Shown here: positions 792 to 18,812 of the stretch, in pieces
Layout: the number at the start of each line of letters is the position of its first letter
How positions within the stretch are numbered: the stretch's first letter is position 1
DNA from: an uncultured virus (IMG/VR IMGVR_UViG_3300025392_000003)
Taxonomy: Duplodnaviria; Heunggongvirae; Uroviricota; Caudoviricetes
DNA: 64,000 nt
Strand: one strand, 5' to 3'
Virus record (IMG/VR): IMGVR_UViG_3300025392_000003
Translations under genes and position numbers: made by a program
The notes under the pieces: generated by a model
Told to the model about the DNA's origin: nothing
The model's database searches: none
The model's input: the letters and a program-made list of their open reading frames with translations, nothing else

Positions 792-804
792 AGGTATAAG
801 GATA

Positions 805-1305
805 CTAGCGTTTAGTTAGGTCTTCCTCTATGGGTGAGAGGGTATCTGCCTCATAGGAAGATTTGTTTGCTTTGGTGGCTAGGGAGAGATAGTTCTCTAG
901 GGATTTTTGTATTGCGGCCTTTGGTTGATTAGTGTCTATTGCCCTTATGACTTGTTGAGCCCCTAGTAGTGCTTCTTGGTGGCGTTGAGCGGCGATTTTG
1001 TGAGGGGCGTCGAATATGACTTGATTGGCGATTTGGTTATGGGCCGAGATGATTCCCCTATGAACGCCGATAGCCGTTGCTTTGGGGGTTTGGGGATTGT
1101 CGAGGAATTGCTTTATGCCCTCTTCCCCGATTTCGTTCTTCTTGTATCTATCTAGAACTCGGCTAATTGCCGATACGAGGTATTGGGCTGGTTGGGAAGT
1201 GTGTTCTCCCCCCTCTGTGTATTGGTTGCCCCGAAACTCGTGTCCTTGAGTATCGCCTTTGATTACTCGTAGCCATAGGGCTATTGCTTGCTCTATGGTT
1301 TCCAT
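805..1305 (-). CDS. KGD-GHxFxGNQ motif protein with helical His/Ala-rich cargo
   Basis: VIKGDTQGHEFRGNQY at aa 14-29 (K to Y = nt 1219-1260). Confidence 0.7.
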   Translation of the reverse strand: METIEQAIALWLRVIKGDTQGHEFRGNQYTEGGEHTSQPAQYLVSAISRVLDRYKKNEIGEEGIKQFLDNPQTPKATAIGVHRGIISAHNQIANQVIFDAPHKIAAQRHQEALLGAQQVIRAIDTNQPKAAIQKSLENYLSLATKANKSSYEADTLSPIEEDLTKR

Positions 1306-1312
1306 AGTTGGG

Positions 1313-1537
1313 CTAGTCCTTTAGGAAGTTAGATACTTCGTCTTTGAGTGTTTGTGGCGCGGCGTTCCAAACTGGTAGGTGAGTAAAGTTCTCTACGGCG
1401 TCGAGTTGCTGGGTGGTTGTGCCGTTTGATACCCCTAGTGACCAGAGTAGGTCTGGCAAGGTGGTTATGAGTTTGCCTACTCGGTATAAATCCCACGAGT
1501 TGTATTTGAGCCAGTCTTCGTTATCTATCTGTGTCAT
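1313..1537 (-). CDS. Hypothetical protein (74 aa, MTQIDNEDW...)
   Basis: TAATG stop/start overlap with 1110-aa ORF at 1537; GAGGAAAAGGA RBS-like sequence upstream. Confidence 0.6.
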   Translation of the reverse strand: MTQIDNEDWLKYNSWDLYRVGKLITTLPDLLWSLGVSNGTTTQQLDAVENFTHLPVWNAAPQTLKDEVSNFLKD

Positions 1538-4500
1538 TAGGATTCCTTTTCCTCGTCTTCTTCGCCTGTGGTCCATTGGTTTCCGTAAAATTGATGCCCC
1601 TCGACATCTCCCTTGCTTACTTGCGTTTTGCTTTCTACGGTCGCTTCTAGCGGCCCGCCTAATACGACCATTTCATCTTCACCTAAGCACCCTATACCCG
1701 TTAGGGCGAACGAGAGTATCCGTGATACTGGCACGATTGAGGTAGTCACGAAGCCCTTATCGGTCTTATCAGCACTATTGGCGAAGTAATCGGCGCGCTC
1801 TTTGGTATAGGAGAATGACGATAGTGGGCGTAGTGGCACTTCGGCCTTAGTTGCTTGTTCTGTCCACTTTGGTTCTTTGCCTTGCCCGAATACATAGCCA
1901 CGATAGAGAGTTAGTTCTTTGATTCCCTTATCAGCAAAATACTTCTGTGTTGCGTTGTATTGGGCTCGGAGAAAGGCTTTGTATAGGTCGGTTTCTGGCT
2001 TATCCATAGGGAAAGCATTTGAGTTTGGATTTTGGGCGGCATTTTTGATGCCAAACTCCTTTTCAGCAATCTCTTGTAGATTCCCCGCCTTGTTGTTGGT
2101 GGAAGATGTGGCCCAAGTTCGGATTAGGCGAGAAACGCCCTGTTCTCGTAAGGTGTTGATAATTCGGGGGTCGTTGCCGGGGATACGCTCTGTCTTATTA
2201 AACTCTCGTAGTTTGGCTTGGGAGAGATTGCGTATCTGCTCATTAGCCGAGTCATTGATGTTTTGGTTTTGCTCTTTAGTGCCGCTATTGGATTCGATAA
2301 CTTTGGGGTCGCCCCACTTGTCAACAATCCATACATCGCCTTTGCCGAGTGGTGTGTAGGCGTTGGCTTTTACGCCCCAACCGAAAGTAGCGAATTGTCT
2401 GGTTAGGGCTTGGTCGGCTTTGGGGTTCGCCTCTAGGAACGGAGTTAGTTCTTTGGTGATTTGCTGGGTCACATAGGTCTTGGCTTTGGCGGCGTAGGGC
2501 GAGTAGATAGAAGTTTGGTATTTGGTCGGCACACCGCTATTTGCTTCCGCCATAGGGGTAATGCCGCTAAGTAGTTTTTCGCAGTCTTTGGCTATTTCAG
2601 CACCGAGTTCGCCACCTGTCCATTGGTTTCCCCTAAACGGATGCCCCTCTGATTCGCCCTTTAGAACTCGTGCCTTTGGATTTTCTAGGGCCGCAATTTG
2701 GCGGGCCTGTTCTTCGTTCCACTTCGACCACTTGTTGTCGGGTTCTAGTGACCGACCTAATAGTTGGTGATACGGCTTTGAGTCAGGTATGTATTTAGAT
2801 TGAACTGGCAATCCTCTATCGTTTGCGATTTGTGCAATTTGCTCTTCTATAGCCGTTGCTGCGCCCGGCACTTTCCCTGTTGAGCCCAAATAGCCGACAT
2901 CAACATAGTTTCCGTATTTTTCCGTTTCCTTTACGCTGACGCTCACTACTGCCGCTAGGTTCTTATCCTTGTCTCTAGCAACAAGTAGATAACACTCCTT
3001 GATGTCTGGGTCTTCGTCATAGATTTTCCCCTTTACATCTTTAACTGCCGCACCCATTAGGTCTATACCTAACTGTTGGCGTTTCGGCATACTCTCGTAT
3101 TCTTTTTTCTTTAGTTTGGTGATTTCGTCATTGACTTTTTGGATAGCGGAAGTTCTATAGCCCGATAGAGCCGTTATTCTTCCGCCCGCATCGTAGAACT
3201 CTTTGATGTTCCTTTGGATAAACGAGATTGGTGAATCGCCCTCTCCTGTTTCCCATTGATTACCTCGAAAAGGGTGTCCTGCCGATTCGCCCTTGATTAC
3301 ATCACTTGGCTCGGCAGGTATTGGCTTTGACTCTAGGCCGCTTGGCGATACCTTGTCGTAGGTGTCGCTCATAACTAACTTGCCTCGGTTGAGAATCATC
3401 ACATAGGAGTTGCCGTTCTCTTCTACTTTGGCTGTTAGGGCATCTACGCCCATCATCGCTAGACGTATGTTTTCATCGCCAGCCACAATCGTTTGTGCTG
3501 CTGTCTCGGCTATGTCCTTGAGTTGTGGCTTGCCCGCCGAAAGCATTTCAGCAACGGCGTCTATGTTCTTGAGGATGTCGGCGCTTTTACTCTCTGCGTT
3601 GTTGAGGGCTTTTACGGCCTTGTTGTAATCAAGGACTTTGGAATCTGCTTGGAGTTTGAGTTTCATAACGCCCCCATCAACTTCTCCATTGTGGGCTGAT
3701 GAAGCGTAGTATTGGGCGTTCTCGGCGTTGGTGGTCGAATACCAAGCGCGACCAAAAGCACCCGCCCCGATTTTGACCCCCTTGCCATAGGCGAAGTCGG
3801 CAATCTTGTCTTCGGCTGGTGAACGGTGCGTAGAGATTCCGGTAAAGAGTGGTGGGAGTTTGCTTCGGTATTTGTCGAACTCACTCTGGGATAGAACCTT
3901 TGGTGGTTCGTTGTTCCCAATACGGTCAAAGACCAGATTGGCTAGTTTGAGGTGTCCTCGACCAGATTCAGTCACTCCTGCGTAATCCGCTAGGGTTTTG
4001 GAATTGGCAGCGACTCGTACGAGGTTTTCAGCAAACTTTGGATAATCGCCGTAGCCGAGTTCCTTAGCGATTTCTTTAGCCTTTGCTTCCAACTTCTCGT
4101 ATGAACGACCGTCTGGTGTCGTTCCGCCCATACCGAGGGTGTATTGATTGCCGTGAAATGGGTGGCCCTCGATATCGCCCTTGCTAACGGTGGAAGATTT
4201 TGCCTGTTGGAGAATAAATGCCGCCAATGCCTCTGGCGCTCCCGGTGGTGAGAAAATCATTGGGCGTTTCTCATCCATCATCGCTGGGGTTGCTTCTACG
4301 AGGTGATTATCGTATAGCCCATTGTCTAAAGGCTTTGGCTCTTGCCCCGTAAAGTAATCGGTTAGGTTTGCTGCTTGTGCCTCGTTGATTACGCCACGCC
4401 CATCAAGGAACTTGCCATCACCGATAGATAGAACAAAGTGGTCCACTATCGGGTGGTAGCCACTCTCAACCGCTGCGTTGATGTGGCGAACGCTCGTAGT

Positions 4501-4869
4501 TATTGAGGCCTTGATTTCACCATTAGGGAATAGTTGCTTTAGTGCCTCGGCGGTAGCCAAGCATCCGCCCGTAAGGGCGTTGTTAGGGTAGAAGTCGGAA
4601 ACCTCTTGCGTTCCATAGTTCAGCATCTTTGATGCTGTTCCGATAACTTCGTTTAGTTTTTTCGTGTATTCCTGTGAATCTAGGATTTCGCCAATCTTGT
4701 TTGGGTCAACCCTTGCCCCCTCTAGCGAGCCCTCTTTTCCAAACGAGAACGATGGGTGAACCTGTGCGTGTCCGTTTCCGTCTTGGTATTGGTTGCCGTG
4801 GAATGGATGTCCGTCAACATCGCCTTTGATGATTTCAGCAAACGTCGGGTGGATGGGCAGGACTTCCAT
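1537..4869 (-). CDS. 1110-aa polyvalent protein: papain/transglutaminase-like + degenerate ART-like + GNAT-like + R-S-E ADP-ribosyltransferase modules, separated by five KG[DE]-GHxFxGNQ motifs
   Basis: Module 1 GGC...DHFV...FLDGRG (C-H-D); module 2 LFTG...GAGAFGRAWYSTT..AQYYA...GVDAL...VMILNR; module 3 VDVGYLGSTGKVPGAATAI...SKPYHQLLG; module 4 LYRG...LSSFS...GEDEMVV. Confidence 0.75.
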   Translation of the reverse strand: MEVLPIHPTFAEIIKGDVDGHPFHGNQYQDGNGHAQVHPSFSFGKEGSLEGARVDPNKIGEILDSQEYTKKLNEVIGTASKMLNYGTQEVSDFYPNNALTGGCLATAEALKQLFPNGEIKASITTSVRHINAAVESGYHPIVDHFVLSIGDGKFLDGRGVINEAQAANLTDYFTGQEPKPLDNGLYDNHLVEATPAMMDEKRPMIFSPPGAPEALAAFILQQAKSSTVSKGDIEGHPFHGNQYTLGMGGTTPDGRSYEKLEAKAKEIAKELGYGDYPKFAENLVRVAANSKTLADYAGVTESGRGHLKLANLVFDRIGNNEPPKVLSQSEFDKYRSKLPPLFTGISTHRSPAEDKIADFAYGKGVKIGAGAFGRAWYSTTNAENAQYYASSAHNGEVDGGVMKLKLQADSKVLDYNKAVKALNNAESKSADILKNIDAVAEMLSAGKPQLKDIAETAAQTIVAGDENIRLAMMGVDALTAKVEENGNSYVMILNRGKLVMSDTYDKVSPSGLESKPIPAEPSDVIKGESAGHPFRGNQWETGEGDSPISFIQRNIKEFYDAGGRITALSGYRTSAIQKVNDEITKLKKKEYESMPKRQQLGIDLMGAAVKDVKGKIYDEDPDIKECYLLVARDKDKNLAAVVSVSVKETEKYGNYVDVGYLGSTGKVPGAATAIEEQIAQIANDRGLPVQSKYIPDSKPYHQLLGRSLEPDNKWSKWNEEQARQIAALENPKARVLKGESEGHPFRGNQWTGGELGAEIAKDCEKLLSGITPMAEANSGVPTKYQTSIYSPYAAKAKTYVTQQITKELTPFLEANPKADQALTRQFATFGWGVKANAYTPLGKGDVWIVDKWGDPKVIESNSGTKEQNQNINDSANEQIRNLSQAKLREFNKTERIPGNDPRIINTLREQGVSRLIRTWATSSTNNKAGNLQEIAEKEFGIKNAAQNPNSNAFPMDKPETDLYKAFLRAQYNATQKYFADKGIKELTLYRGYVFGQGKEPKWTEQATKAEVPLRPLSSFSYTKERADYFANSADKTDKGFVTTSIVPVSRILSFALTGIGCLGEDEMVVLGGPLEATVESKTQVSKGDVEGHQFYGNQWTTGEEDEEKES

Positions 4870-4891
4870 AGTCCGTATTCTAGGTCAGGGG

Positions 4892-5167
4892 TTATGAAAT
4901 CCCTGTTAGGTAATCAACAAAACCGTAGAGCCAGCCGAGTATGTCTAGATACAAAGGCGCGCTATCAAAGTTGTCTTCGGGAAATTGCGCCGAGTAGGTG
5001 TTGAGCCAAGTTCTGACTTTGATGTAGACATCGGCCATATCGCTAGACACTTCGTTGTATTTCAGCACCAATACACATTTCGCCCACCACTCAAGGTCGG
5101 TCTTGCTAACCCAAACAGGGTCTATCTCGTATTCGCAAAGCATTGGTAGGTCGGGCAGTAGTGCCAT
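4892..5167 (-). CDS. Hypothetical protein (start uncertain)
   Basis: ORF 4892..5257 in track; its upstream part overlaps a hairpin, so ATG at 5167 is preferred. Confidence 0.4.
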   Translation of the reverse strand: MALLPDLPMLCEYEIDPVWVSKTDLEWWAKCVLVLKYNEVSSDMADVYIKVRTWLNTYSAQFPEDNFDSAPLYLDILGWLYGFVDYLTGIS

Positions 5168-5192
5168 AACGAGAGTCTTCCACAGAAAGCAG

Positions 5193-5230
5193 AAATCCCA
5201 CCGGCCAACAAGAAAAAACCGGTGGGATTT
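5193..5230. other. Perfect 12-bp inverted repeat (hairpin / possible terminator)
   Basis: AAATCCCACCGG (5193-5204) ... CCGGTGGGATTT (5219-5230). Confidence 0.6.
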
Positions 5231-5410
5231 ACGGCGGGTGGGAATGGAGTAAACCACCTACCTGCTGCCAGCGCGCCACCCCAGAGTAAGGACAGGGGCA
5301 TAAGGGTCTGCTTGGTTAATAACAACTACTCGTCAACTCGGCCTAAGACCTAATGCACGAGCGATTGTCGGTATCTATTATACCGAGTCAGTTAAGGGGG
5401 TGGGCGATTT

Positions 5411-6199
5411 TTACGAGAGGTAAGTCATCAAGTCGGAACTTGCCAAATTAGCCTTGTTTGAGGCCGCAATCGCAGATTGAGACTTGGTGGCATCGCCCTT
5501 AGCAACTCCGTGAGCGATAGCCGCTTCGGTGTGGGCGTTCGCCGCTTTGTTCGCTAGGTCACGACCATAGGTGTCGCCCATAGAGCCACGCTCAATAGCA
5601 ATCTTCACTGCTTCGGTTGCGGTGTCGGTGTGTTCCTTAGCCATCTTGTCGTGGTCAACTGGTGGATAAGCGTTGCCAGAAAAATTGTGTGGTGGTGGTG
5701 GTGGTGGTGGTGAGCCAGCGCCGCCGGCGTTTGGGCCTTGTTCTTGGGCTTCTTTTAGAGCGTAAGGAACCATAATCTTCGTGGCGCGGTCAATCGCATC
5801 TATTCGAGCGTGAAGGCGTGGGCTATAAATATCAGTTTGCATATCTGACAAAGCCCTTTGGCTCAAATCATCTCGTTTTGCCTTTAGGTCCTCTAGGTGC
5901 TCCGATAGCGGCTTGGGGTCTTCGGTAATCTTCTTAGCAACATCACGCAGCACTTCAGCAGTGGCCTCGTGTGAAGACTTGCCGTAATAGGTGCCTGTGT
6001 GTCCACGAGTGTCTGTAAAAGATGGGTTTTGGAATCTCGCTTTGCCCTCGTGGAAAGCGGCTTGCTTGTTGAGTTCGTTTACCGCACCAGAGCGATATTG
6101 GTTTCCGTGAAAAGCGTGTCCAGCAACATCGCCTTTCAGGATTTCGCTAGCCTTAGTCCAGTTTGGAACCAGTGCGTCGGTGGAGAAGGGGTTGGTCAT
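5411..6199 (-). CDS. Leader + KGD-GHxFxGNQ motif protein with helical His/Ala cargo and poly-Pro linker
   Basis: MTNPFSTDALV...EILKGDVAGHAFHGNQY (motif 6095-6136); PPPPPPP; AANAHTEAAIAH. Confidence 0.75.
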   Translation of the reverse strand: MTNPFSTDALVPNWTKASEILKGDVAGHAFHGNQYRSGAVNELNKQAAFHEGKARFQNPSFTDTRGHTGTYYGKSSHEATAEVLRDVAKKITEDPKPLSEHLEDLKAKRDDLSQRALSDMQTDIYSPRLHARIDAIDRATKIMVPYALKEAQEQGPNAGGAGSPPPPPPPHNFSGNAYPPVDHDKMAKEHTDTATEAVKIAIERGSMGDTYGRDLANKAANAHTEAAIAHGVAKGDATKSQSAIAASNKANLASSDLMTYLS

Positions 6200-6678
6200 T
6201 ACTTGACCAGAGCCTTCAGTTCAGCCTTCAACGGCGCAGCGCCCTCGCCACGGAAAGTTCCCATATTGGAGAGCAAGTAGTTGACAACGCTCTTGGCACT
6301 GTCAAACATATAGTTGTCTTTGATGTCGTGGAGTTGCTTTAGTGCGTCTAGGTATGGTTTGGCGGTATAGTGAACGCCATTCTTGCTGTTCGTATTCCAA
6401 ACCTTTTCGATGTCACGAGCAATCTCGTTCAACGGACGATGCCCAGAGGGGGTGAGATTTCCACCACCGCCCTCTCCAGCCTCGTACTGGTTCCCGTGGA
6501 AATCGTGTCCTTTGACATCGCCTTTAGCGACGGCTTTTTTTCCACCACACTTAGGGCAAGTGACGTGACCGCCACGGATTTTGCCCGTCCCCTTACAAAG
6601 GGGGCATTTATCGCCCTTTACAACAGAGTAAATACCCTGTCCTTTGAGTAGTGCGTCAGAAGAGAACGAGTTTGACAT
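6199..6678 (-). CDS. Leader + DnaJ-type Zn finger + KGD-GHxFxGNQ motif + phage-type helical domain
   Basis: Start reassigned to ATG 6678 (AAAGGAA RBS); MSNSFSSDALLKGQGIYSVVKGD-KCPLCKGTG...CPKCGG; motif 6484-6525; RPLNEIARDI...AKPYLDAL...FRGEGA..LKAELKAL. Confidence 0.75.
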   Translation of the reverse strand: MSNSFSSDALLKGQGIYSVVKGDKCPLCKGTGKIRGGHVTCPKCGGKKAVAKGDVKGHDFHGNQYEAGEGGGGNLTPSGHRPLNEIARDIEKVWNTNSKNGVHYTAKPYLDALKQLHDIKDNYMFDSAKSVVNYLLSNMGTFRGEGAAPLKAELKALVK

Positions 6679-6688
6679 TTTGGTTCCT

Positions 6689-6997
6689 TTAGATTTCAGC
6701 AATCGCTAGAGTTGCGCCAGCGGTCGAACTAATTGCACAAACTGCCCCGGTGTAAGTCGTAAACTGAATCTGTGCGTTTGGTTGTAGCGGAATACCCTTA
6801 CCGACTGATGCGCCACTTGCGGCGAGGTAGAGGTAGATAACGGCAGAAGAGTGGGTGTTGGTAATCCACGCCTGAAAACGAGTGGTGTTGGCGGGGATAA
6901 CCGAATAGACCGTGTTAGCCGTAGTGAGGGTGAGGTTCGAGCCGGGGTTAAATGCGACTGACTGCTGATATGACTCAACGATTTGGGGGTGTGGCAC
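6689..6997 (-). CDS. Small beta-rich hypothetical protein (possibly virion-associated)
   Basis: GTG start with AGGAG RBS; R...ITN....IYL...GIPLQP pattern. Confidence 0.6.
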   Translation of the reverse strand: MPHPQIVESYQQSVAFNPGSNLTLTTANTVYSVIPANTTRFQAWITNTHSSAVIYLYLAASGASVGKGIPLQPNAQIQFTTYTGAVCAISSTAGATLAIAEI

Positions 6998-7040
6998 TTG
7001 GCTCTCCTAAAGGTCTAAGACGAAAAAATATTACCCCACG

Positions 7041-7085
7041 AAAAGAAAAAAGCCCCCACCGACCCGATTTGGGCCGATAGGGGCG
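7041..7085 (-). terminator. Rho-independent terminator
   Basis: Minus strand GCCCCTATCGGCCC-AAATC-GGGTCGGTGGGGGC followed by TTTTTTCTTTT. Confidence 0.75.
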
Positions 7086-7101
7086 TGATTCTTGTTGGTG
7101 A

Positions 7102-7296: not shown

Positions 7297-7333
7297 TTTT
7301 GTTCCTTTCTTTCTTTTCTCTAATTGAGACTTA

Positions 7334-7774: not shown

Positions 7775-7848
7775 TTTGTCTCCTTGTTAGGTTGGATACA
7801 ACTATAGCAAGGTTGAGTGGTGAAAGCCAGTTTTCTTGCTAGTTATTT

Positions 7849-8562: not shown

Positions 8563-8563
8563 G

Positions 8564-8767: not shown

Positions 8768-8792
8768 GGTATCTCCTAGTTCGGTAGGAACC

Positions 8793-9307: not shown

Positions 9308-10507
9308 CTACGCACCTTCACGAACAACGCTGGTTAGGGGGATTCCGAGGCTATGTAGGGCATCTTCGGGGATATTTCGGGTGGCTACCCACTCTTTGTA
9401 GATGTCTTCGGTCGCGCTAAATCCAAACTCGCCAATCTTAAACTTGACCTTTGGTTGCTTGGGGGTAAAGGCCTTGCCACTTTCCAAATCAGCAACATCT
9501 TCGGCATCAAAGCCGGTTCCATCCAAAGTCTTGACCTCGCCCAAAATCTGAACGAGCAAGTCGTTGTCGTAGGTTGCCTTATCAGCAGTTCGGTTGTCGG
9601 CTAAAACGATTCGGGCAGCGGCCTCATCATCAACATCTACCCAAACAACGGCTATTTCTGTCCAGCCGAGGGCAGAAGCCGCAGCGGCGGTGTGGTTGCC
9701 TTTGAGGATTTGGTTGTTTCGTTTATTGACTACGATTGGGCGATACTGTCCGAATAGTCGCAGGCTTTCGCTAATTGCCCCAATGTCGCCCTCTCTAGGG
9801 TTTCCGGGGAAGCGTTGGAGTTCGCTTAGGGGCGTGGTTGTCGTTTCAGCAAGAGCGTACTTCTCTGGTGTGGGTTTGGAAGTGACCCTAGATTCTTTGG
9901 GTTTTTTAGGCTTGGCTTCTTTCGGCACATCTAGACGTGCGCGTAGTTCTCGGTTGATTTGGGATTTCTTGTCTCCCGCCACTTCCTTGATTGAGGCAAG
10001 CCAGATTCCGTGAAGTTCGGCCTCTAATTCACCACGCCACTCACCTATTTGGATAGGCACATTATTGGTTTCTTCTTTTTCCTTTTCCACTAGTGGCTGA
10101 CCGACTCCGCCACCGGGTTCTGCGAATAGACCCTCAAGTTCGTCAAGGGCTTCTTTGTCGTAGCCAGTTCCCTCTAGGTTTGGCAACGATTTCAGCAAAT
10201 CAATTAGGAACTCGTTGTGATACGAGGCGATATCGCTAGTTCGGTTATCGGCAAGCAGGATTTTTAGGGCATCGCGTTCGCTTCCCTCATAACGGGTAAT
10301 CGCCACTTCTTGCCAGCCGAGAGATTGGGCCGCTTTCCAAGTGTGGGTTCCGGCGATAATGATGTCGTTCCAAACTACGATTGGTGAATACTGCCCGTTG
10401 ACTTTTAGGCTTTCGGCAATAGAGGCAACATCGCCAATACGAGGGTTAGATGGGTGCGCCTTGATAGAATCAATCGCAACCTTTTCAGCACGAACATTTA
10501 TCGTCAT
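9308..10507 (-). CDS. Protein with two tandem ParB/Srx N-terminal domains
   Basis: Twice: HPSNPR/FPGNPR-GD..AI.ESL...GQY.PIVV...I.GxHT..AA..LGW.E.A...LADNRT.D.A.Y. Confidence 0.85.
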   Translation of the reverse strand: MTINVRAEKVAIDSIKAHPSNPRIGDVASIAESLKVNGQYSPIVVWNDIIIAGTHTWKAAQSLGWQEVAITRYEGSERDALKILLADNRTSDIASYHNEFLIDLLKSLPNLEGTGYDKEALDELEGLFAEPGGGVGQPLVEKEKEETNNVPIQIGEWRGELEAELHGIWLASIKEVAGDKKSQINRELRARLDVPKEAKPKKPKESRVTSKPTPEKYALAETTTTPLSELQRFPGNPREGDIGAISESLRLFGQYRPIVVNKRNNQILKGNHTAAAASALGWTEIAVVWVDVDDEAAARIVLADNRTADKATYDNDLLVQILGEVKTLDGTGFDAEDVADLESGKAFTPKQPKVKFKIGEFGFSATEDIYKEWVATRNIPEDALHSLGIPLTSVVREGA

Positions 10508-10652: not shown

Positions 10653-13121
10653 TTAGGTTTCGTTGGCTAAACCTCGCTCGGTGAGCCCGATAAGCAAGTC
10701 GCCAACCATAGAGTTCTCTTGCTCTTCATCATCTACAACGCCATCTGTGGCTTGATTCACCACTACTCGCTTGGCGTTGATTAGGGCCGCTATGTCTTCG
10801 TCAATCGTGTCTTTGGTAATCATCAACCAACCAGTCACGGAGTCTTTTTGCCCGATTCGGTGGCAACGGTCAACGGCTTGGTCCATATCAGCAGGAGTCC
10901 AGCCTTGCTCAATAAATAGAACATCACTTGCAGCCGTTAGGGTCAAACCCACGCCAGCGGCTTTGATTTGGCAAGCAATAACTTTCTGCTCATCGGAGTT
11001 TTGGAAACTGTCAACGGCTACCTGTCGCTTCTCCATAGAAACGCCACCCTGAATCTTGCAACCATTGGCGAACTTATCCGAAACCATATTCACCACTTCG
11101 GTATGCCAACCGAATACGACCAACTTCTTGTCGTTGGCTAGGAAGTCGCCCACCCACTCTTCGGCGGCCTTTAGTTTGGCTTTGGCGGCCAACTGCTTAA
11201 GGGTAGAGATTGCGACTAGGTGTTCTGCCGAACGAGCGCGTAGGGCTTTCTGCCACGCCGCCTTGCGAGCCTCTTCCGTATCAGCACCACTTTCCGTAGC
11301 AGCCTTGAGAGCCATCTCGGTTAGGTATTTGATAATGTCCGCTTCGGCTTTCTTGTATTCTTTCATAATGTCCTTGTCGCCCTCAACAAAGACTTCTGAC
11401 CACATCTTCGGTGGTAGTTCGGTGAGCACTTCTGCTTTACGCCTACGGACATAGCAAGAGGCACGGAGTTTGCGATTCAGCATCGCTAACGAACGGCTTG
11501 ATGAGCGACCGAATTGCGAACGGAACTTGCTCGCCCCGCCGAAATCATCTAGACGGGCAATTACTCGGAGTTGGGTCATCAACTCAAGGGGAATATTCAC
11601 GACTGGTGTTCCCGATAGGCAGACACGAGTTCCGTCATTTGGAATCTTGTCGGCTAATCGGATTGCGGCCTTGCTTCGCTGTGCCGTGCCACTCTTGATG
11701 TAGTGGCTTTCGTCAAGAACAAGACCCTTGAGTTTTGGGAACTTCTCGACCCAGTAGGTCAAAATATCGTAATTAATCACATAAATGTCGGCATCGGGTT
11801 CGACCTGACCACTTGTTCCGCTAACGACTGCGACCTTTACGCCCTTTATCCACTTCTCTGCTTCACGCTTCCAATTGAGTTTGAGAGATGCTGGACAGAT
11901 AACTACGGCTGGGAACGCTTCGGTTGCTTTCAGCATCGCCAATCCTTGTAGCGTTTTACCGAGGCCCATCTCGTCACCGATTAGAACGCCACCGCCCGTT
12001 AGGTTTTCGTGGACACGAACCCACTTGTCTTCTTGGTATTCGTATCCCAATGCTCGCATTCCGTAGGCGACGCCCGCCCTTTGGAAAGGCATAAGGTTGA
12101 GGCCGTTTCCGCCAAATCCCGGCACGGTTATTTCAGCATCTTTGGCCGCGCTCGCATCAATAATGTGCTGGACAGAAGCCGCTTCCTCAATAAGTGCTTT
12201 TGCTTCCTTAGAGAGTTTGGCGTTGTGTTCTTCGTGGAATCGGAGAACCTCGGCAACGCTTTCTACTGGAATAAGCCATAGGCGTAGTTCTGGCGACCAA
12301 GACGAACCCGGCATTTCACGAACTTGGCTAATCAGCGTGGCATCGTAATTAAACGAGATAGCGAACGAGTTGTTATTTACGAGGATTCGAGGGGCTAGGG
12401 AAACCTCTTGGTCTTTGAGAGCCAACACATCATCGGAGATGTAGAACTTGTTGTCTTTGCCGAAAGTCTTGACCATCGTTGCTGATGAGAGTGGCACGAA
12501 CCAAGTTGAGGTCGGCTTATCGAAGTGGCGACCGGGGATTAGTCGCACGGCTTCTAGATACTTAACGTTGTAGTCAAAGGTGATTGCTATTTCGCCCTCG
12601 CCTAGCGTGATTCTGCCGTTGTATTCGTCTTCTAGGTTTTTGGGAACGGTGGCAAGGAAATCTCTGGCTCGCTGGCTAACTTGGATGTCGTTTTGCTCGG
12701 CCCAAGTTTCCACTTTGCCGTAGCGACTGCTGGCTACTACCCAACCACGCTCATCTCGATTCCAATACGCGCCGAGTGGCCCTTTGGGATTTGCTGTATC
12801 ACCATACGGAATCGTGACAATGATTTTGCCGTTGCGTAGGTCAATCGCCCTAAGTCCACTTAGTCGGCTCTTTGGCTTATCTAGAACTGGTCGCTCGATA
12901 TCAGCATACGAAATACCAACTACCGAAAGTTGCTTCGCATACTTGGCGAGCATCTCGTAAGCCTTGAGTTCAATCTCTTTGCCCCACGCCTCAATCGGTG
13001 TTTCGGCTAGTTGCTTACCAAACTTGGCATCAGTTCCGTTAAAGCCCTGACCATCTTGCTCTTGTGCGCCATCGCAACGAAGTGCGAGTGCTGATACCGC
13101 TTCGTGTAGGGCCGAACTCAT
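10653..13121 (-). CDS. SNF2-family helicase with HARP-like N-terminal repeats (SMARCAL1-like)
   Basis: GDEMGLGKT, DESH, LSGTP, QAVDRCHRIGQ; repeated F.Y......VR.(I/M)PG..(F/W).....W..P units. Confidence 0.9.
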   Translation of the reverse strand: MSSALHEAVSALALRCDGAQEQDGQGFNGTDAKFGKQLAETPIEAWGKEIELKAYEMLAKYAKQLSVVGISYADIERPVLDKPKSRLSGLRAIDLRNGKIIVTIPYGDTANPKGPLGAYWNRDERGWVVASSRYGKVETWAEQNDIQVSQRARDFLATVPKNLEDEYNGRITLGEGEIAITFDYNVKYLEAVRLIPGRHFDKPTSTWFVPLSSATMVKTFGKDNKFYISDDVLALKDQEVSLAPRILVNNNSFAISFNYDATLISQVREMPGSSWSPELRLWLIPVESVAEVLRFHEEHNAKLSKEAKALIEEAASVQHIIDASAAKDAEITVPGFGGNGLNLMPFQRAGVAYGMRALGYEYQEDKWVRVHENLTGGGVLIGDEMGLGKTLQGLAMLKATEAFPAVVICPASLKLNWKREAEKWIKGVKVAVVSGTSGQVEPDADIYVINYDILTYWVEKFPKLKGLVLDESHYIKSGTAQRSKAAIRLADKIPNDGTRVCLSGTPVVNIPLELMTQLRVIARLDDFGGASKFRSQFGRSSSRSLAMLNRKLRASCYVRRRKAEVLTELPPKMWSEVFVEGDKDIMKEYKKAEADIIKYLTEMALKAATESGADTEEARKAAWQKALRARSAEHLVAISTLKQLAAKAKLKAAEEWVGDFLANDKKLVVFGWHTEVVNMVSDKFANGCKIQGGVSMEKRQVAVDSFQNSDEQKVIACQIKAAGVGLTLTAASDVLFIEQGWTPADMDQAVDRCHRIGQKDSVTGWLMITKDTIDEDIAALINAKRVVVNQATDGVVDDEEQENSMVGDLLIGLTERGLANET

Positions 13122-13199
13122 AGTCTTACAATCTTACTAGGGTTTAGTAAGGCGTAAGTGTATTTACTTAGACTCTCGGTCGTGGGGCGAAGTCAAGAA

Positions 13200-13904
13200 C
13201 TACTCTTTTTCTACAACAAATCCATTTACAACTTCGTGGCTAGGTGGCAATAAAGTTTTTTCGTCACCTTTTGCGTTGGTCAGATTGGCACCATTCAGGT
13301 TGGCGTTGGTCAGGTCGGCTCTCTGCAGTTTGGCATTGCTCAGGTTGGCGTTGGTCAGGTCGGCTCCACGCAGGTCGGCATTAAACAGGTTGGCACTGCT
13401 CAGGCTGGCTCCACGCAGGTTGGCACCGACTAGGTGGGCATTAGTCAGGTTGTCTCCGTGCAGTTCGGCACCGCTCAGGTCGGCACGGTGCAGGACGGTG
13501 TAGTTCAGATTGGCATTGGTCAGGCTGACACCGCTCAGGTTGGCAAAGTTCAGTTCGGCATTCCTCAGGTCGGCACCGCTCAGGTCGGCACCTTTCAAGT
13601 TGGCACTGGTCAGGTGGGCATCATTCAGGTTGGCACCCCTCAAGTTGGCACCGCCTAGGTCGGACTCAAACAGGTTGACCCCGTACAGGTTGGCACGGCG
13701 CAGGTTGGCACCGACTAAGTTGGCACGGGGGGCAATAATGACATCTTTACCGTTGATGGTGTGGATGCCGTTGGGTACTCTACTTGCGCCGTTTGAACCC
13801 TCTTGATACTGGTTTCCGTGAAAGGGGTGACCGGGGACATCGCCCTTGCGGACAGGGTAGTTTGATAACGATTTCAGTAGTTCGTTGGCAGTAAAACCTG
13901 ACAT
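13200..13904 (-). CDS. Leader + KGD-GHxFxGNQ motif + pentapeptide-repeat protein
   Basis: MSGFTANELL...PVRKGDVPGHPFHGNQY (motif 13806-13847), then ~30 A(N/D)LxG/N pentapeptides. Confidence 0.9.
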   Translation of the reverse strand: MSGFTANELLKSLSNYPVRKGDVPGHPFHGNQYQEGSNGASRVPNGIHTINGKDVIIAPRANLVGANLRRANLYGVNLFESDLGGANLRGANLNDAHLTSANLKGADLSGADLRNAELNFANLSGVSLTNANLNYTVLHRADLSGAELHGDNLTNAHLVGANLRGASLSSANLFNADLRGADLTNANLSNAKLQRADLTNANLNGANLTNAKGDEKTLLPPSHEVVNGFVVEKE

Positions 13905-13953
13905 ACAAAGTCCTTTCGGTCTAAGTAAAGACTACATTAGGATTTACAAAACC

Positions 13954-14211
13954 CTACTTGTTGTCTCGGTTGTGGTGTTTGTAGAGTGCTTGGTCGGTAG
14001 TTCCGGCCCACTCCGCAATCTTGCGCCAAGTCACGCCCTTGTCACGAAGACGAGTGACTGTCTGACGGCGTTCCTTACCCAACTCAACGACTTTCTTTTC
14101 GTGGTCACGCATCTGCGCGCAGGTGTCTTTGATGTGCTGAAGAAGCGATGCTACTTCGGGCGAGTCGTTCTCGTCTGCTTGCACTCGGTTGGGTAGTGGC
14201 TCTAAAACCAT
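13954..14211 (-). CDS. Helix-turn-helix DNA-binding protein
   Basis: RRQTVTRLRDKGVTWRKIAEWAGTTDQALYK. Confidence 0.75.
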   Translation of the reverse strand: MVLEPLPNRVQADENDSPEVASLLQHIKDTCAQMRDHEKKVVELGKERRQTVTRLRDKGVTWRKIAEWAGTTDQALYKHHNRDNK

Positions 14212-14329
14212 TAGTTCTCTTTCCTCTAGGGGTGTGGGGTCTAGTGTAGTGAGGTTTATCTTATCGTGCTATATCAAAACGCTTATTTTTAGAACAGCGT
14301 CATAGCGCCCCGACTTTGGAAAAGCGGGC

Positions 14330-14713
14330 TTATTCGGTTTCGTTCTCTCCCAAAACGACTGGAACCACCGTCAATTCTAGGGCATCTTTTCCAAACTGCG
14401 GAGTTAGGAAAGTTAGTTTGGTCACGATTTTTGCGTTGTCGTCAATCAGCACTCCGGCATCAACTAACCCGTCGATAGCGGCTTTGACTAATGGGAAACA
14501 CGCGCCGACATCTTGGCGATAGCGAGCATTCAGCACATAGGGCTGTGCCACGACTTCGATAACTTCCAAACGAGGGACCATCGCTTGTTGGGCTAACTCG
14601 CAGAAAGCGGCTCGCCACTCTTTTACGATTTTGGCTCGCTTCATATGGTGCACAGTTCGCTCTTTGTTGAGAGTGAAGTCTGGGCGAACCTCGTATTCCA
14701 AAGTCCAAGTCAA
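14330..14713 (-). CDS. RusA-like Holliday junction resolvase
   Basis: TLN...H...RAKIVKEWR, RQDVG...VKAAIDGLVDAGVLIDDN. Confidence 0.8.
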   Translation of the reverse strand: MTWTLEYEVRPDFTLNKERTVHHMKRAKIVKEWRAAFCELAQQAMVPRLEVIEVVAQPYVLNARYRQDVGACFPLVKAAIDGLVDAGVLIDDNAKIVTKLTFLTPQFGKDALELTVVPVVLGENETE

Positions 14714-15201
14714 AGTGATACGACCCTAATCGGTGGTCGGACATTTGTGGTGTGGGTAATCGCAGCGTTCACGACCAGTTCCAAACGCTTTTTAGGAACG
14801 AGAGTTTTATCGCGCTCAAGGACAAACAAAGCAGCGAGGGCGGCATCTACGGCCGCGCCAGTTGCCCCATAGTTGTTGGTTGATTTCAGCACGGCAAAGT
14901 CAGAGCCGATACTAAAGATTCCTTTTTTATTTGCCACGAGCACTTCCCAATCTGGTTCTTCGGGAAATCCGGGTTCAGAGGTTTTGCTCAAAAGAAAGTC
15001 ACGGATTTTGTATGGGTCGCCAATGCCAGATTTACGCAATAAATCCATAACTCGGAACGAGCCAGAAACGCCGACTAATCCATCTCCGGCTTTCCAAACT
15101 TTCGGTTCTGCTGAAACGATGACACTTGAGCCATCAAAGGCCCCGCTATCGCCGGCCATCCAAACCTGATTCTTGTCTTTCCAAGCGGCGATTAATGTCA
15201 T
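14710..15201 (-). CDS. Ntn-hydrolase (HslV/proteasome-beta-like) phage peptidase
   Basis: N-terminal M-T-LIAA...VWMAGDS, KVW, VGVSGS, YGATGA. Confidence 0.65.
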   Translation of the reverse strand: MTLIAAWKDKNQVWMAGDSGAFDGSSVIVSAEPKVWKAGDGLVGVSGSFRVMDLLRKSGIGDPYKIRDFLLSKTSEPGFPEEPDWEVLVANKKGIFSIGSDFAVLKSTNNYGATGAAVDAALAALFVLERDKTLVPKKRLELVVNAAITHTTNVRPPIRVVSL

Positions 15202-15247
15202 AGCACAAGGCTACTAGTGGATTTCAGCACCCTTGCTTTAGGGGCGT

Positions 15248-15682
15248 TTAGCCAAGTGCGCGCTTAAACAAAACCCAAGCCGCCGTGCGACCGACGCGCT
15301 CGAGAATCCATTGGTCGTAGCAAACCTTTCGGTAGCCGTGTCCAGTCTTGTCGTGGTATTCGTTGCACTCCCAAATAGTTCCGACGGGGTATTCCTCAAT
15401 CGGCGGTGTTGGACATTCGTGGGGCAAGTAGATAACTACGCCCTTGCGTGGCGGGTGTTCGTTGATGACCTCAAACTGCTGGCTGGGGTGGCGTAGGCGT
15501 GACTGCAACTCGGCAGAGTCATTCGTAGACGGCTTGATGTTGGTGATTACCCAAGGGTCTTTGCCGTGTCGGGCGTTCCACTCGCTATAACGCTTGTCGG
15601 CTGATTCTGGCATTTCGTTCTTCTTGATTGGATAGAAGTTATTGCGAAATGGGTCTTTGTCTTTTGGCATCTTTACCTCCAC
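15248..15682 (-). CDS. Hypothetical protein
   Basis: ORF track; C-terminal HECP...GTIWEC...C motif. Confidence 0.55.
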   Translation of the reverse strand: MEVKMPKDKDPFRNNFYPIKKNEMPESADKRYSEWNARHGKDPWVITNIKPSTNDSAELQSRLRHPSQQFEVINEHPPRKGVVIYLPHECPTPPIEEYPVGTIWECNEYHDKTGHGYRKVCYDQWILERVGRTAAWVLFKRALG

Positions 15683-15727
15683 GCCTTTTATTCGTAGAGG
15701 TGACTATAGCAACCTTTAGGGGCTAAA

Positions 15728-16336
15728 TCAAGAAATCTTACAAAGAAGTTGTAGCCCGGTCGGAGAAACCATATAAATATCAGGAACATCAAAGTAGATA
15801 CCGGCGTAGCGCATCGCTTCGTGGGCGAGTGCTGAACAAATCCAAGTTCCCTCACGGCGAGCCTCGAAGAACCAATATGGGGTAATGATGTCGATTCCGA
15901 TACAGATGTCCGAGAGTAGGCCATACTTCTTGCCTACCTGTTGCTCGGCAAAGAAAGCGGCCTTTTCGGGGTCGCCGCCAAGAGTGGTGATATCGAAGAA
16001 AGAAATAACTTCCGAGGTGGCAATCAGACTTGCGAGGGTCGAGCGAAGAACGCCTTTCATCGTCGCCTGAACGATAATGATTTCCTCGTAGGTTTCGCCC
16101 TCGGTAATGACGGTAAAGCAGTGGTTGTATTTGCCGTCTTTCCAACGCAACTTCTCACCGACACGGATAAGCATTCCCATAGTGCCATCGGTGCGAGCCC
16201 ATCCGGTCATTCCGCGCTTGATTTCAGCAGGGGCAAGTTGAGTGACACAGGTTGGTTTGATTTTGGTTATTCCCAACAATGACTTGATGCTGAAATCCTT
16301 TTCCACAAGATTGCCTTTCGGGGGTGCGTTTCTCAC
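15728..16336 (-). CDS. Permuted papain-like (YiiX/YebB NlpC/P60) amidase
   Basis: His before Cys: YNHCF ... QVGKKYG ... WICSALAHEA ... VSP. Confidence 0.75.
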   Translation of the reverse strand: MRNAPPKGNLVEKDFSIKSLLGITKIKPTCVTQLAPAEIKRGMTGWARTDGTMGMLIRVGEKLRWKDGKYNHCFTVITEGETYEEIIIVQATMKGVLRSTLASLIATSEVISFFDITTLGGDPEKAAFFAEQQVGKKYGLLSDICIGIDIITPYWFFEARREGTWICSALAHEAMRYAGIYFDVPDIYMVSPTGLQLLCKIS

Positions 16337-16412
16337 ACAAATCTACACCCGACTTTGGAAAATGCCGTTTAGATAGAGCGTGGGCAGTGTTGACTCTGTT
16401 AGTGTTTAGTTT

Positions 16413-17672
16413 ATGTTGCTAAAAGGAAATTGCCTAGAGACACTGAAATCTTTACCCGACAACTCAATTGACGCAGTTGTGACCGACCCCCCATACGAAC
16501 TCGGATTTATGGGGAAGTCGTGGGATAGCACGGGCATTGCTTACAATGTTGAGGTTTGGAAAGAGTGCTTACGGGTTCTCAAACCCGGTGGACACCTCTT
16601 GGCATTTGGCGGTAGTCGCACTTATCACCGCCTCGCTTGCGCCGTTGAAGACGCTGGGTTTGAGATACGTGACCAAATTATGTGGATTTACGGTTCGGGG
16701 TTTCCAAAATCGCTGGACGTGAGCAAGGCCATAGACAAGTCGGCCGGTGCAGAGCGTGAAGTTGTCGGCAAAAAAATAACTAGGAAGGCAAACGCACCAC
16801 GTTCGGAAGGACGAAATCACATTGACTGCGCTTCTGGGCAAATGGAGGTGTCTATCACCGCCCCAGCCACCGCCGAAGCCCAACGCTGGCAAGGCTGGGG
16901 AACGGCACTCAAGCCCGCGCACGAACCTATCGTTGTCGCTCGCAAACCCCTAATCGGCACGGTGGCTAATAATATTCTGACCTACGGAACGGGGGCGCTG
17001 AACATTGACGGGTCGAGGGTGGGCTTGCAAGACGGGGAAATCAAGGTTGGCGGCTTCGGCAACGGGGGCATTGGCTTCGGTGGTGGTGACGCTTCAGGTG
17101 TTGAGTGGCAAAAAGACACTAAGGGTCGCTGGCCCGCCAACGTAATCCACGATGGTAGTGAGGAAGTGCTGGCAGGGTTCCCTGATGCTAAGGGTGGGAC
17201 TTGGAATCCTACGGCAGGAGCAAGGCACTTCAACAATGATGGAGAGCCAACGCTTTATAAAACCAGCAAGTCCGACGCCAGCGAAGGTTCCGCAGGCCGC
17301 TTCTTCTACTGCGCTAAAGCAAGCAAGGCAGAGCGCAACGCAGGGCTAGAGGGGTTGCCTGAACAAATGCTGACAGGGCGTGACGAGGGTCAAGACGCTA
17401 TGCAAGTGCCGTACAAAACCCGTTCCAAAGTCACCGCCAACTTCCACCCCACAGTCAAGCCACTTGCCCTTATGCGCTACTTGATTAAGTTGGTGACACC
17501 GCCCAACGGCACTGTCCTTGACCCGTTCTTGGGTTCAGGAACAACCGCCGTAGCAGCCGTTTTAGAGGGCTGTGAGTGGATAGGGTGCGAACTCACGCCC
17601 GATTACCACCCGATTATTGAAGCCCGTGTTGAGTGGGCTAAGTCGCAGGTGGAACAGCAAACCCTGTTTTAG
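16413..17672 (+). CDS. DNA N6-adenine/N4-cytosine methyltransferase (beta class)
   Basis: VVTDPPY near N-terminus; HPTVKP and VLDPFLGSGTT near C-terminus. Confidence 0.92.
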   Translation: MLLKGNCLETLKSLPDNSIDAVVTDPPYELGFMGKSWDSTGIAYNVEVWKECLRVLKPGGHLLAFGGSRTYHRLACAVEDAGFEIRDQIMWIYGSGFPKSLDVSKAIDKSAGAEREVVGKKITRKANAPRSEGRNHIDCASGQMEVSITAPATAEAQRWQGWGTALKPAHEPIVVARKPLIGTVANNILTYGTGALNIDGSRVGLQDGEIKVGGFGNGGIGFGGGDASGVEWQKDTKGRWPANVIHDGSEEVLAGFPDAKGGTWNPTAGARHFNNDGEPTLYKTSKSDASEGSAGRFFYCAKASKAERNAGLEGLPEQMLTGRDEGQDAMQVPYKTRSKVTANFHPTVKPLALMRYLIKLVTPPNGTVLDPFLGSGTTAVAAVLEGCEWIGCELTPDYHPIIEARVEWAKSQVEQQTLF

Positions 17673-17700
17673 GCAAGGACTTGTTGTTTAGCCTCGTCAG

Positions 17701-18201
17701 TTAGTTTCCAGAAGCGTGTTGGTTTCCGTAAAAAGGGTGGCCTTCTTGTGCGCCAACTTTACCACCCGTTCCTTGTGGTGTCGTGCTCGGGCCAGTTGAG
17801 TAGCGGTCGGTTGATTGGTATCGGGGCAGGGGCGTTCCGTAAAAAATGTTTTTGAGTCCGGTTTTGATATTCCCTAGTAGTTCGTGAGCATCATCGTCTT
17901 TACCGCCACTCTGTCTAATTGCTTTTGCTCGGTCAAGGTTTTCTTGTGCGAAAGCGCGGCTTGCGTGTGCATCCGCTTCGTATTGAGAAATATTGCTGGC
18001 GTGTAGTTTTTGAGCAATCGGGTTAGTTGCGGTCTTAGCCTTTTCTTTTTCCGCTGCGATTTTCTTATCGCTTTCTTTTGCATCAGCAAGGTTTATTCGG
18101 GCAGTTTCCTCGTGCCACTCTGCTGAATGACCCAACTTCTCAACCCGGGCGTAAATGCCTTGGCCGCCTAAAAGTTCTTCCGCTAAGAACGGATTCGGCA
18201 T
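17701..18201 (-). CDS. Leader + helical cargo + C-terminal GHPFYGNQH motif protein
   Basis: MPNPFLAEELLGGQGIYARVEK ... GKVGAQEGHPFYGNQHASGN*. Confidence 0.75.
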   Translation of the reverse strand: MPNPFLAEELLGGQGIYARVEKLGHSAEWHEETARINLADAKESDKKIAAEKEKAKTATNPIAQKLHASNISQYEADAHASRAFAQENLDRAKAIRQSGGKDDDAHELLGNIKTGLKNIFYGTPLPRYQSTDRYSTGPSTTPQGTGGKVGAQEGHPFYGNQHASGN

Positions 18202-18812
18202 TAGTTTCCAGAGGCGTGTTGGTTGCCGTAGAATGGGTGGCCTTGCTGTGCGCCGACCTTACCGGTTCCCTTTGGAACAGAAACGCCAGCAGCGGCCTCA
18301 CGAGACTCACGATTTGCTGAAACCTGATAACGGTCGTTTAGGTCGTTATTAATTTCCTTAAGGTTTTTCTGTTCGTCTTTGATTTTGCCAACGACTTCCT
18401 TTGCCGCATCGAGGTGGTGTCCGGCAAGAACGGCGTGAACTTTTCCTGTTAGACCATCCCCCGATTTGGAAGCGTGGTCATTGGCGGCGTCAATGTGATT
18501 TTGGAGTTTGCTTTTCAGCCCGCTAATAGTGCTAACTGATTCATCGCGCATATTCTTAAGTTCGCTTTTAACGGCGGGGCGAGCGCGTACACCATAAGCC
18601 TCCGCCTCGGTATTATTAACCCTTACGGCGTTTGGATACTTCTTTACTGCGGCATCAACTTTTTTGTTGTATTCGTGGATTTGGCTTTGGAGTTCATCGT
18701 GCCTTTTCATACCGTAGGCAACGGCTGCGCCAATTAAAACAGCGTTTTTGCTGACACGAGAGTAGATGCCTTGGTTGGCAAGAAGTTCGTCTGAAGAAAA
18801 GGCGTTGCTCAT
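18201..18812 (-). CDS. Leader + helical cargo + C-terminal GHPFYGNQH motif protein (tandem partner)
   Basis: MSNAFSSDELLANQGIYSRVSK ... GKVGAQQGHPFYGNQHASGN*; TAATG overlap with next gene. Confidence 0.75.
   Translation of the reverse strand: MSNAFSSDELLANQGIYSRVSKNAVLIGAAVAYGMKRHDELQSQIHEYNKKVDAAVKKYPNAVRVNNTEAEAYGVRARPAVKSELKNMRDESVSTISGLKSKLQNHIDAANDHASKSGDGLTGKVHAVLAGHHLDAAKEVVGKIKDEQKNLKEINNDLNDRYQVSANRESREAAAGVSVPKGTGKVGAQQGHPFYGNQHASGN

Follow-up and report, generated by a model that had tools for sequence, protein, structure and literature searches.

The junction peptide and its copies in the window

We analysed a 64,000-nucleotide stretch of DNA (the window, in what follows) from an uncultured tailed virus (IMG/VR record IMGVR_UViG_3300025392_000003; Caudoviricetes), whose gene content in PHROG and Pfam scans is that of a siphovirus-like phage, and describe a short peptide, here called the junction, that recurs in it at the ends of proteins and between protein modules. 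A six-frame regular-expression scan for the core GH.F.GNQ gave 11 matches, all on the minus strand and all at positions where a first-pass annotation, made from the letters alone, had placed them, as compared to none in 50 mononucleotide shuffles of the window. The 11 copies are spread over seven open reading frames (ORFs): five are found in the ORF at 1537-4869, and the other six ORFs have one each. Nine copies are canonical, with the form [VI]-x-K-G-[DE]-x-x-G-H-x-F-[HRY]-G-N-Q-[YW], and [VI]-x-K precedes the box in 9/9 of them, as the annotation had reported. The other two, in ORFs 17701-18201 and 18201-18812, have the box at the C-terminus of the protein in the variant form GKVGAQ[EQ]GHPFYGNQHASGN-stop (pattern K-V-G-A-Q-x-G-H-P-F-Y-G-N-Q-H). 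The motif can be divided into a site that varies, in this phage [VIL]-x-K, and a box that does not, G[DE]-x-x-GH-x-F-[HR]-GNQ-[YW], behind which comes a Gly-rich spacer. The copies from the six-frame scan are listed below, together with one site that lacks the box.

1219..1260, minus strand: junction copy, VIK + GDTQGHEFRGNQY, in ORF 805..1305
1573..1614, minus strand: junction copy 5 (C-terminal), VSK + GDVEGHQFYGNQW, in ORF 1537..4869
2620..2661, minus strand: junction copy 4, VLK + GESEGHPFRGNQW, in ORF 1537..4869
3253..3294, minus strand: junction copy 3, VIK + GESAGHPFRGNQW, in ORF 1537..4869
4141..4182, minus strand: junction copy 2, VSK + GDIEGHPFHGNQY, in ORF 1537..4869
4786..4827, minus strand: junction copy 1 (N-terminal), IIK + GDVDGHPFHGNQY, in ORF 1537..4869
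6095..6136, minus strand: junction copy, ILK + GDVAGHAFHGNQY, in ORF 5411..6199
6484..6525, minus strand: junction copy, VAK + GDVKGHDFHGNQY, in ORF 6199..6702
6616..6624, minus strand: leader-end site without box, VVK then GD (putative cut-site part alone), in ORF 6199..6702
13806..13847, minus strand: junction copy, VRK + GDVPGHPFHGNQY, in ORF 13200..13904
17716..17760, minus strand: variant C-terminal box, KVGAQEGHPFYGNQH, then ASGN and stop, in ORF 17701..18201
18216..18260, minus strand: variant C-terminal box, KVGAQQGHPFYGNQH, then ASGN and stop, in ORF 18201..18812

The 36 pairs that can be formed from the nine canonical copies have identities of 0.70 at the nucleotide and 0.73 at the amino-acid level, and 46% of the codons for the same residue differ between copies. 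The peptide is therefore the level of conservation, which agrees with the selection on the peptide claimed before, and a repeat at the DNA level is ruled out by the same codon variation. The cargo segments between junctions show no mutual BLASTP similarity (E<=0.01), apart from an N-terminal leader common to ORFs 6199, 17701 and 18201 (named here by their first coordinate).

Proteins that carry the junction

The seven carriers, and a small untagged ORF that belongs to the same story, are as follows; G002 is a relative of this phage that is introduced below.

805..1305, minus strand: tagged ORF, 166 amino acids, leader METIEQAIALWLRVIK then box, cargo of no assigned family; same protein start in G002
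1313..1576, minus strand: small untagged ORF; residues 14-87 are 100% identical to residues 939-1012 of a G002 polyvalent protein
1537..4869, minus strand: polyvalent protein, 1110 amino acids, in the order tag-D1-tag-D2-tag-D3-tag-D4(ART)-tag (ORF list, motif scan, Pfam)
5411..6199, minus strand: tagged ORF, 262 amino acids, leader MTNPFSTDALVPNWTKASEILK then box, cargo of no assigned family; the leader class recurs in IMG/VR loci
6199..6702, minus strand: tagged ORF with leader (MSNSFSSDALLKGQGIYSVVK+GD), zinc-ribbon insert, full junction and phrog_13953 cargo (PHROG, Pfam scans)
13200..13904, minus strand: tagged pentapeptide-repeat protein, 234 amino acids, in the replication module (Pfam Pentapeptide, E 1.2e-44)
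17701..18201, minus strand: split form, 166 amino acids, N-terminal leader ending in VEK (about 18136-18201) and C-terminal box (motif scan)
18201..18812, minus strand: split form, 203 amino acids, N-terminal leader ending in VSK (about 18747-18812) and C-terminal box (motif scan)

The N-terminal leaders in the window have about 15-25 residues and end in [VIL]-x-K. The four segments of the polyvalent protein have no mutual similarity and one of them is a DRAT-type ADP-ribosyltransferase (ART) domain (Pfam, residues 969-1076, E 3.8e-6), so that at least two unrelated effector domains are found in one polypeptide. Both this ART and the pentapeptide repeats had been recognised in the first-pass annotation. 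Its GNAT-like domain corresponds to a weak lead for D3 (Atlas score 0.91), and its papain-like domain is backed by no search: D1 gave weak YunG-like Atlas leads and two homologues, too few for a fold, so that an embedded peptidase may still sit in D1. Family-library scans of the seven carriers found no peptidase family at E<=0.01 and no metallopeptidase domain (zincin-like, as in polyvalent proteins).

Translation of ORF 1313-1576 likely starts at an ATG overlapping the stop codon of the polyvalent gene (TAATG, window 1537-1576). The domain that it encodes is fused in frame behind a polyvalent-protein junction in G002 and is a separate gene in the window, a fusion or fission event between near-identical genomes. 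ORF 6199-6702 probably starts at an internal ATG, eight codons downstream of the listed TTG, and its insert resembles an Anti-TRAP-like zinc ribbon (match below cut-off).

In the AlphaFold2 (AF2) model of the pentapeptide-repeat protein, residues 1-55 (leader, tag and spacer) have a predicted local distance difference test score (pLDDT) below 50 and the beta-helix is modelled with confidence; the low score fits a flexible motif that would be read in trans. Nine orthologues of this cargo bear three different leader classes. We note that its resemblance to Qnr, MfpA and PipB2 falls far below the curated cut-offs of those families; from its sequence we class it as a generic DNA-mimic-like beta-helix outside them.

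Distribution of the junction

A back-translated K-G-[DE]...GH.F.GNQ pattern matched at least 219 IMG/VR stretches. Five long contigs contain 10-25 boxes each (5/5) and no match to the reversed pattern. We built a profile from 148 tag segments and searched it against 1.84 billion proteins, which gave 2385 representative proteins (clusters) at E<=1e-3, 507 at E<=1e-10 and 96 at E<=1e-30, with up to nine copies per representative protein. MuF-type proteins are found among them, and a portal in one IMG/VR contig bears a junction as well; the first-pass annotation had expected matches in scaffold, portal and MuF-type genes.

In a set of 185,579 prokaryote species, represented by a single genome apiece, the same DNA pattern matched three contigs, all from metagenome-assembled genomes. 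Among cultured phages (tblastn with three tag variants, 50,697 records), Xanthomonas phage Rb1 is the sole match; its single, degenerate copy is DGD-type and lies in a 1222-residue gene annotated as 'internal head protein', near DarA-N and metallopeptidase genes. Seven matches to mycobacteriophage integrases (E 8-10) in these searches were taken as chance. The tag is almost confined to phages and is abundant, chiefly in uncultured ones. No Pfam, annotated PHROG or NCBIfam family spans it in library scans, a profile search of the PDB with the tag alignment returned 0 chains at E<=10, and a literature search by motif strings returned no relevant paper. The tag is apparently undescribed, consistent with the earlier remark that it matched no named family.

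Two separable parts

The anatomy of the junction was tabulated from the boxes in the 150 best profile-matched proteins, in which the core GH.F.GNQ is required by the selecting pattern. G is found at position -4 in 532/549 boxes and D or E at position -3 in 544/549, and the core is followed by an aromatic residue and then a Gly-rich stretch. Of the 549 boxes, 354 have K ahead of G[DE], 82 have L, 40 have A and 26 have F; this residue is constant inside one protein and differs among proteins and lineages (K, L/A, F, E), giving the classes [VIL]-x-K, [RK]-x-[LA], [LA]-E-F and x-[RK]-E. For the F-type lineage no relative was found in IMG/VR, and the E-type lineage is represented there by one contig of 13.6 kb. 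Boxes are spaced by a median of 214 residues, about one domain, and 67/552 lie within 45 residues of the N-terminus.

The two parts of the motif also come apart. The putative cut-site part is detached from the box in [VIL]-x-K-G-G-x-G-S-G-A-Q-x-GH variants (KGGxGSGAQxGH), some N-terminal leaders finish in [VIL]-x-K with no box, and the distance from the K-G junction to the box is 4 or 9 residues, or the two stand at opposite ends of the protein (ORFs 17701 and 18201). These arrangements support a candidate cut site and a box that are separable.

Genome context and module rearrangement

The window begins and ends within head or packaging genes:

1..594, minus strand: small terminase subunit (phrog_4102, E 8.6e-31), truncated at the window edge; comes immediately downstream of the tagged cluster, on the same strand
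63295..63999, minus strand: major head protein, cut by the window edge (phrog_1005, E 8.3e-58)

Between them lie a replication module (7.8-22 kb) and tail genes (25-48 kb). G002, a 75-kb IMG/VR contig, overlaps both ends of the window (1-4158 and 52060-64000, 91-99.5% identity), so its middle 60 kb is the part of the genome outside the window and the total is about 125 kb, of which the window is about half. G002 encodes, in this order, a Mu-type portal, a 634-residue protein with a C-terminal XkdF-type prohead protease (Peptidase_S78_2, about residues 470-634), and 12 consecutive tagged ORFs (37016-57256) with 14 further boxes; this block is followed by a scaffold-like protein and then a lambda-E-type capsid protein. 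The genome has about 25 boxes in total, of which the 11 of the window are the smaller share. The main block of tagged genes lies beyond the window and hence could not be seen in the first-pass annotation.

Modules have changed places at junctions. The ART-type module lies between D2 and D3 in G002 and behind D3 in the window (the two are 28% identical), and the domain of ORF 1313 is fused in one genome and separate in the other. Such shuffling, along with a spacing of one domain and an orthologous pentapeptide cargo behind three leader classes, would be expected if the junction were a flexible linker or module joint with no role in the capsid, a break point for cassette shuffling between polyvalent genes. 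Yet the motif has six residues that never vary, His, Phe and an aromatic among them, which far exceeds what a linker needs; single-domain proteins also bear the tag at one terminus; it is nearly absent from cellular multidomain proteins; and a DNA identity of about 70% over 42 nt between copies is poor for homologous recombination. We regard a mere joint as quite improbable.

Linkage to head genes and cargo in relatives

As in G002, junctions are found in and around head genes of other phages. The genome G005 (100% complete) encodes a portal, a protein of the form MuF-junction-X-junction-Y, three more tagged ORFs, and an XkdF protease (residues 24-144) followed by a junction (residue 159) and a Zeta toxin. 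In the loci L006 and L083 a junction comes after the 'HPNC[RQ]C' end of MuF. In G034, a phage of the L type (L ahead of G[DE]), the portal (box at residue 578), the MuF protein (three boxes) and a head-protease-PHROG protein (one junction) are all tagged. Around the XkdF genes of 16 further loci, 11/16 have same-strand boxes within 5 kb, and one of the protease ORFs itself holds a box. The link to the capsid that the first-pass annotation had suggested is borne out as genomic context in G002, G005 and G034 (tagged genes behind the portal, junctions behind MuF or XkdF and on the portal); loading into the head itself we infer. We note that the C-terminal extension of the G034 portal (L416, 6203-8278) opens with a junction.

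Cargo was surveyed in 90 multi-tag proteins (25, plus 65 of the best 150), of which 37 have a Pfam family at E<=1e-5. ART-type domains are found in 16, MuF in 7, pentapeptide repeats in 4, DUF7178 in 4, PI3/4-kinase-like domains in 3, InPase, topoisomerase IB and DUF3626 in 2 each, and Zeta toxin and NUDIX in 1 each. By family assignment these are the domains of phage-type polyvalent proteins, typical of injected effectors. One representative protein, P0112 (694 residues), has an Acb1 (anti-CBASS) domain at its N-terminus and an XkdF prohead protease at its C-terminus, with three junctions between them.

Association with the prohead protease

Three sets of contigs were compared: the 27 longest (>=30 kb) among the at least 219 pattern-matched IMG/VR stretches (K-type), 15 contigs matched by L- or E-type patterns, and 37 contigs, each of >=40 kb and coding for a relative of a single cargo domain, of which 1/37 holds a box. 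PF14550 (XkdF) was found in 18/27 K-type contigs, including 5/5 of those rated >=90% complete, as compared to 0/15 L/E-type contigs (0/3 of those rated >=90% complete) and 1/37 comparison contigs. The first-pass annotation had expected co-occurrence with one prohead protease family, and this is seen for the K-type site but not for the box itself, which is constant across protease families; the box as determinant of protease specificity is for the same reason ruled out. Its proposal of a protease site next to a separate docking element agrees with a residue ahead of G[DE] that varies by lineage, a K type that tracks XkdF, and parts that come apart.

In 13 aligned XkdF sequences D49, H79 and S143 are invariant, and [IL]-x-K is found directly behind the XkdF domain in 4/13 of the proteases, followed in one by the full box. 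The phage of the window has its own protease of this family (PF14550 in G002), with the catalytic His and Ser conserved, and its gene lies beyond the window. A literature search for XkdF listed nothing on its specificity. For the L-type phages, S78 and ClpP protease families were not found; PF03420 (Peptidase_S77) was found in 0/15 L/E-type contigs, a search in which the control genomes likewise gave no match.

Among the K-type contigs, 17/27 also have a Mu-type portal and 15/27 an E-type capsid protein (Phage_cap_E; 3/5 of the complete ones), and the capsid protein of G034 belongs to another family. This bears on the possibility that the whole motif, including [VIL]xK, docks inside the procapsid (on capsid protein, scaffold or portal), much as encapsulin cargo-loading peptides do on their HK97-fold shell, and is never cut, multiple tags giving avidity. 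Junctions at extreme termini, where a cut frees nothing (the 67/552 boxes near the N-terminus), the predicted flexibility of the tag and the head-module context would all suit docking alone. Against it, a portal, MuF or protease anchor already places the cargo in the head and makes an intervening docking tag redundant, the box is constant over capsid families that vary, and the variation among lineages of the residue ahead of G[DE], tracking the protease family, is left unexplained. On balance we consider docking alone unlikely.

Proposed role of the junction

The reading that we prefer, with a probability of roughly 55%, is that the junction combines a site cut by the head protease with a handle that stays on polyvalent effectors loaded into the capsid. 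The chain would be cut after the Lys of [VIL]-x-K, most likely by the XkdF-type prohead serine protease (Peptidase_S78_2) that the phage itself encodes. The box, G[DE]-hydrophobic-x-G-H-x-F-[HR]-G-N-Q-[YW], would be kept as the new N-terminus of a module or as a C-terminal tail, and would act as a flexible linear handle that a partner recognises in trans. The carriers (ADP-ribosyltransferases, the pentapeptide-repeat protein and domains of no assigned family) would enter the procapsid alongside portal, MuF and protease, be split into single modules at maturation and be ejected with the DNA. We infer a cut site because its format matches the L/I-X-E site of T4, is uniform within a lineage and is tied to one protease family; loading is suggested by the fusions to portal, MuF and protease and by the gene order.

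Several observations weigh against this reading. A cut site alone leaves the junctions at the extreme N- or C-terminus of a protein unexplained, as there is nothing to release there, and for 86/552 boxes the 14 residues upstream contain no Lys. Portal and capsid types are shared by most of the K-type phages, which probably have a common origin, so the association with XkdF may partly reflect descent. The L-type proteases are named by PHROG matches alone, one of them weak (2.7e-6), and the AF2 fold for the first 200 residues of the protease-junction protein of G005 has a mean pLDDT of 49, too low to be informative. In the window, 3/7 carriers (13200, 17701, 18201) sit in the replication module, away from the head genes, and the canonical junction was found in no cultured phage (the 50,697 records searched by tblastn). 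Finally, the box stays constant while proteases and capsid proteins differ, so the protease cannot be what specifically reads it, and whatever does so cannot be lineage-specific.

A partner this conserved could also be met later. If the box acted during or after ejection, its partner might be the DNA or the tail channel, or else a metal or a conserved host factor. Alternatively, it might be chemically reactive, forming isopeptide cross-links through Lys, Asn or Gln or cutting itself at Asn. Its invariance over differing proteases, portals and capsid proteins would call for such a partner, and it is rich in His, Phe, Arg/His, Asn, Gln and Tyr/Trp, which would be typical of contacts with nucleic acid or metal. 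The PDB profile search shows that no solved structure holds the motif, and a 13-residue peptide that is disordered in the AF2 model would be unlikely to cleave itself; we hold a binding or reactive element of this kind to be rather improbable. Somewhat less doubtful, though still speculative, is a general export or ejection handle of tailed phages that resembles a secretion signal and stays on each module once the head protease has cut the polyprotein, to be read by the DNA end, by the portal-tail channel or through Lys/Gln or Lys/Asn cross-linking, with a cut site that co-evolves with the protease. Such a handle, if real, would be a portable code, shared across lineages, for the delivery of any protein from virion to cell.

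Comparison with known systems

Short terminal peptides send unrelated cargo into HK97-fold shells in encapsulins (cargo-loading peptides) and in HK97, whose protease has a C-terminal targeting tail. Unlike the encapsulin peptides, which are single, terminal and shell-binding, the element described here is repeated inside polyproteins. Temperate phages encode MuF-fused polymorphic toxins, MuF head proteins whose C-terminal effector domains vary; most of them are found in prophages. Unlike these, the junction is almost absent from cell genomes.

Under the cut-site-and-handle reading, phage T4 is a close parallel. Its internal proteins IPI-III and Alt carry a capsid-targeting sequence (CTS) that the prohead protease gp21 removes at L/I-X-E (PMC9026906). 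Like the junction, the CTS is a short portable peptide on unrelated, non-essential proteins inside the head, an ADP-ribosyltransferase among them, and the gp21 site has the same hydrophobic-x-P1 format (PMC9026906). The 10-residue CTS ends in its cut site, as the leaders here end in [VIL]-x-K. Alt is trimmed at each terminus (PMC9026906), and the polyvalent protein of the window that bears the ART likewise has a junction at either end. The CTS, as described there, precedes the cut and is discarded, whereas the conserved element here follows the putative cut and would be retained (PMC9026906). The two systems also differ in the P1 residue (Lys here, not Glu), in the protease (XkdF/S78_2 in G002, not S77), in that the junction also punctuates giant polyproteins, and in that the carriers are siphovirus-like phages with a Mu-type portal.

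Phage-type polyvalent proteins are effectors of 2-15 domains, including ART, InPase, NUDIX and MuF, which were proposed to be packaged and injected (Iyer et al. 2017, PMC5512222). The Pfam families ART-PolyVal and InPase, built from that work, match tagged proteins (PMC5512222). The signature domains ART-PolyVal, InPase and Phage_Mu_F and the adjacency to the portal are found in tagged relatives, and the window itself has the DRAT-type ART only. Processing of polyvalent proteins was proposed to occur via internal zincin-like metallopeptidase domains (PMC5512222); here the candidate is a junction with a separate serine prohead protease. In the text of that paper, 'GNQ' and 'linker' have 0 occurrences (PMC5512222).

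In SPN3US and phiKZ, propeptides of head and ejection proteins are cut by gp245 and gp175 (PMC10052503), and, much as we propose here, the prohead protease cleaves many proteins of the head interior at a single short motif. That protease cuts itself on its C-terminal side, which parallels the [IL]-x-K behind XkdF domains (PMC10052503). Unlike the junction, the motif there ends in Glu and the propeptides are long and variable, and no invariant retained box is described (PMC10052503).

How tailed phages other than T4 pick proteins for loading into the head and for injection is largely unknown. The peptide of about 16 residues described here marks thousands of otherwise unrelated phage proteins, many of which carry anti-defence or host-takeover domains (ART, Acb1, pentapeptide repeats, Zeta kinase, NUDIX). 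If the preferred reading is right, it would provide a sequence rule that predicts the injected proteome of uncultured phages, explain how polyvalent proteins are disassembled, and offer a small tag with which foreign proteins could be brought into phage capsids. It would also make a testable case of a cut site that co-evolves with the head protease while the adjoining handle stays fixed.

Other genes of the window

Several other genes lie among the tagged genes: a double ParB-like protein (9308-10507), an SNF2-type helicase of 822 residues (10653-13121, minus strand) and, on the opposite strand, a DNA methyltransferase (16413-17672, plus strand). The replication module also contains an HslV-family peptidase-like gene (phrog_1040; 14710-15201, minus strand) and an enoyl-CoA-hydratase-like PHROG match (15728-16336, minus strand). 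An ORF of 2808 residues (51262-59688, minus strand) consists mostly of collagen-like G-x-Q/G-x-x triplets and is probably a fibre; the repeats of its G002 copy vary in length and sequence, with 65-98% identity by blocks. Between the fibre gene and the head genes lies a peptide deformylase (59726-60214, minus strand; phrog_2890, E 1.2e-32).

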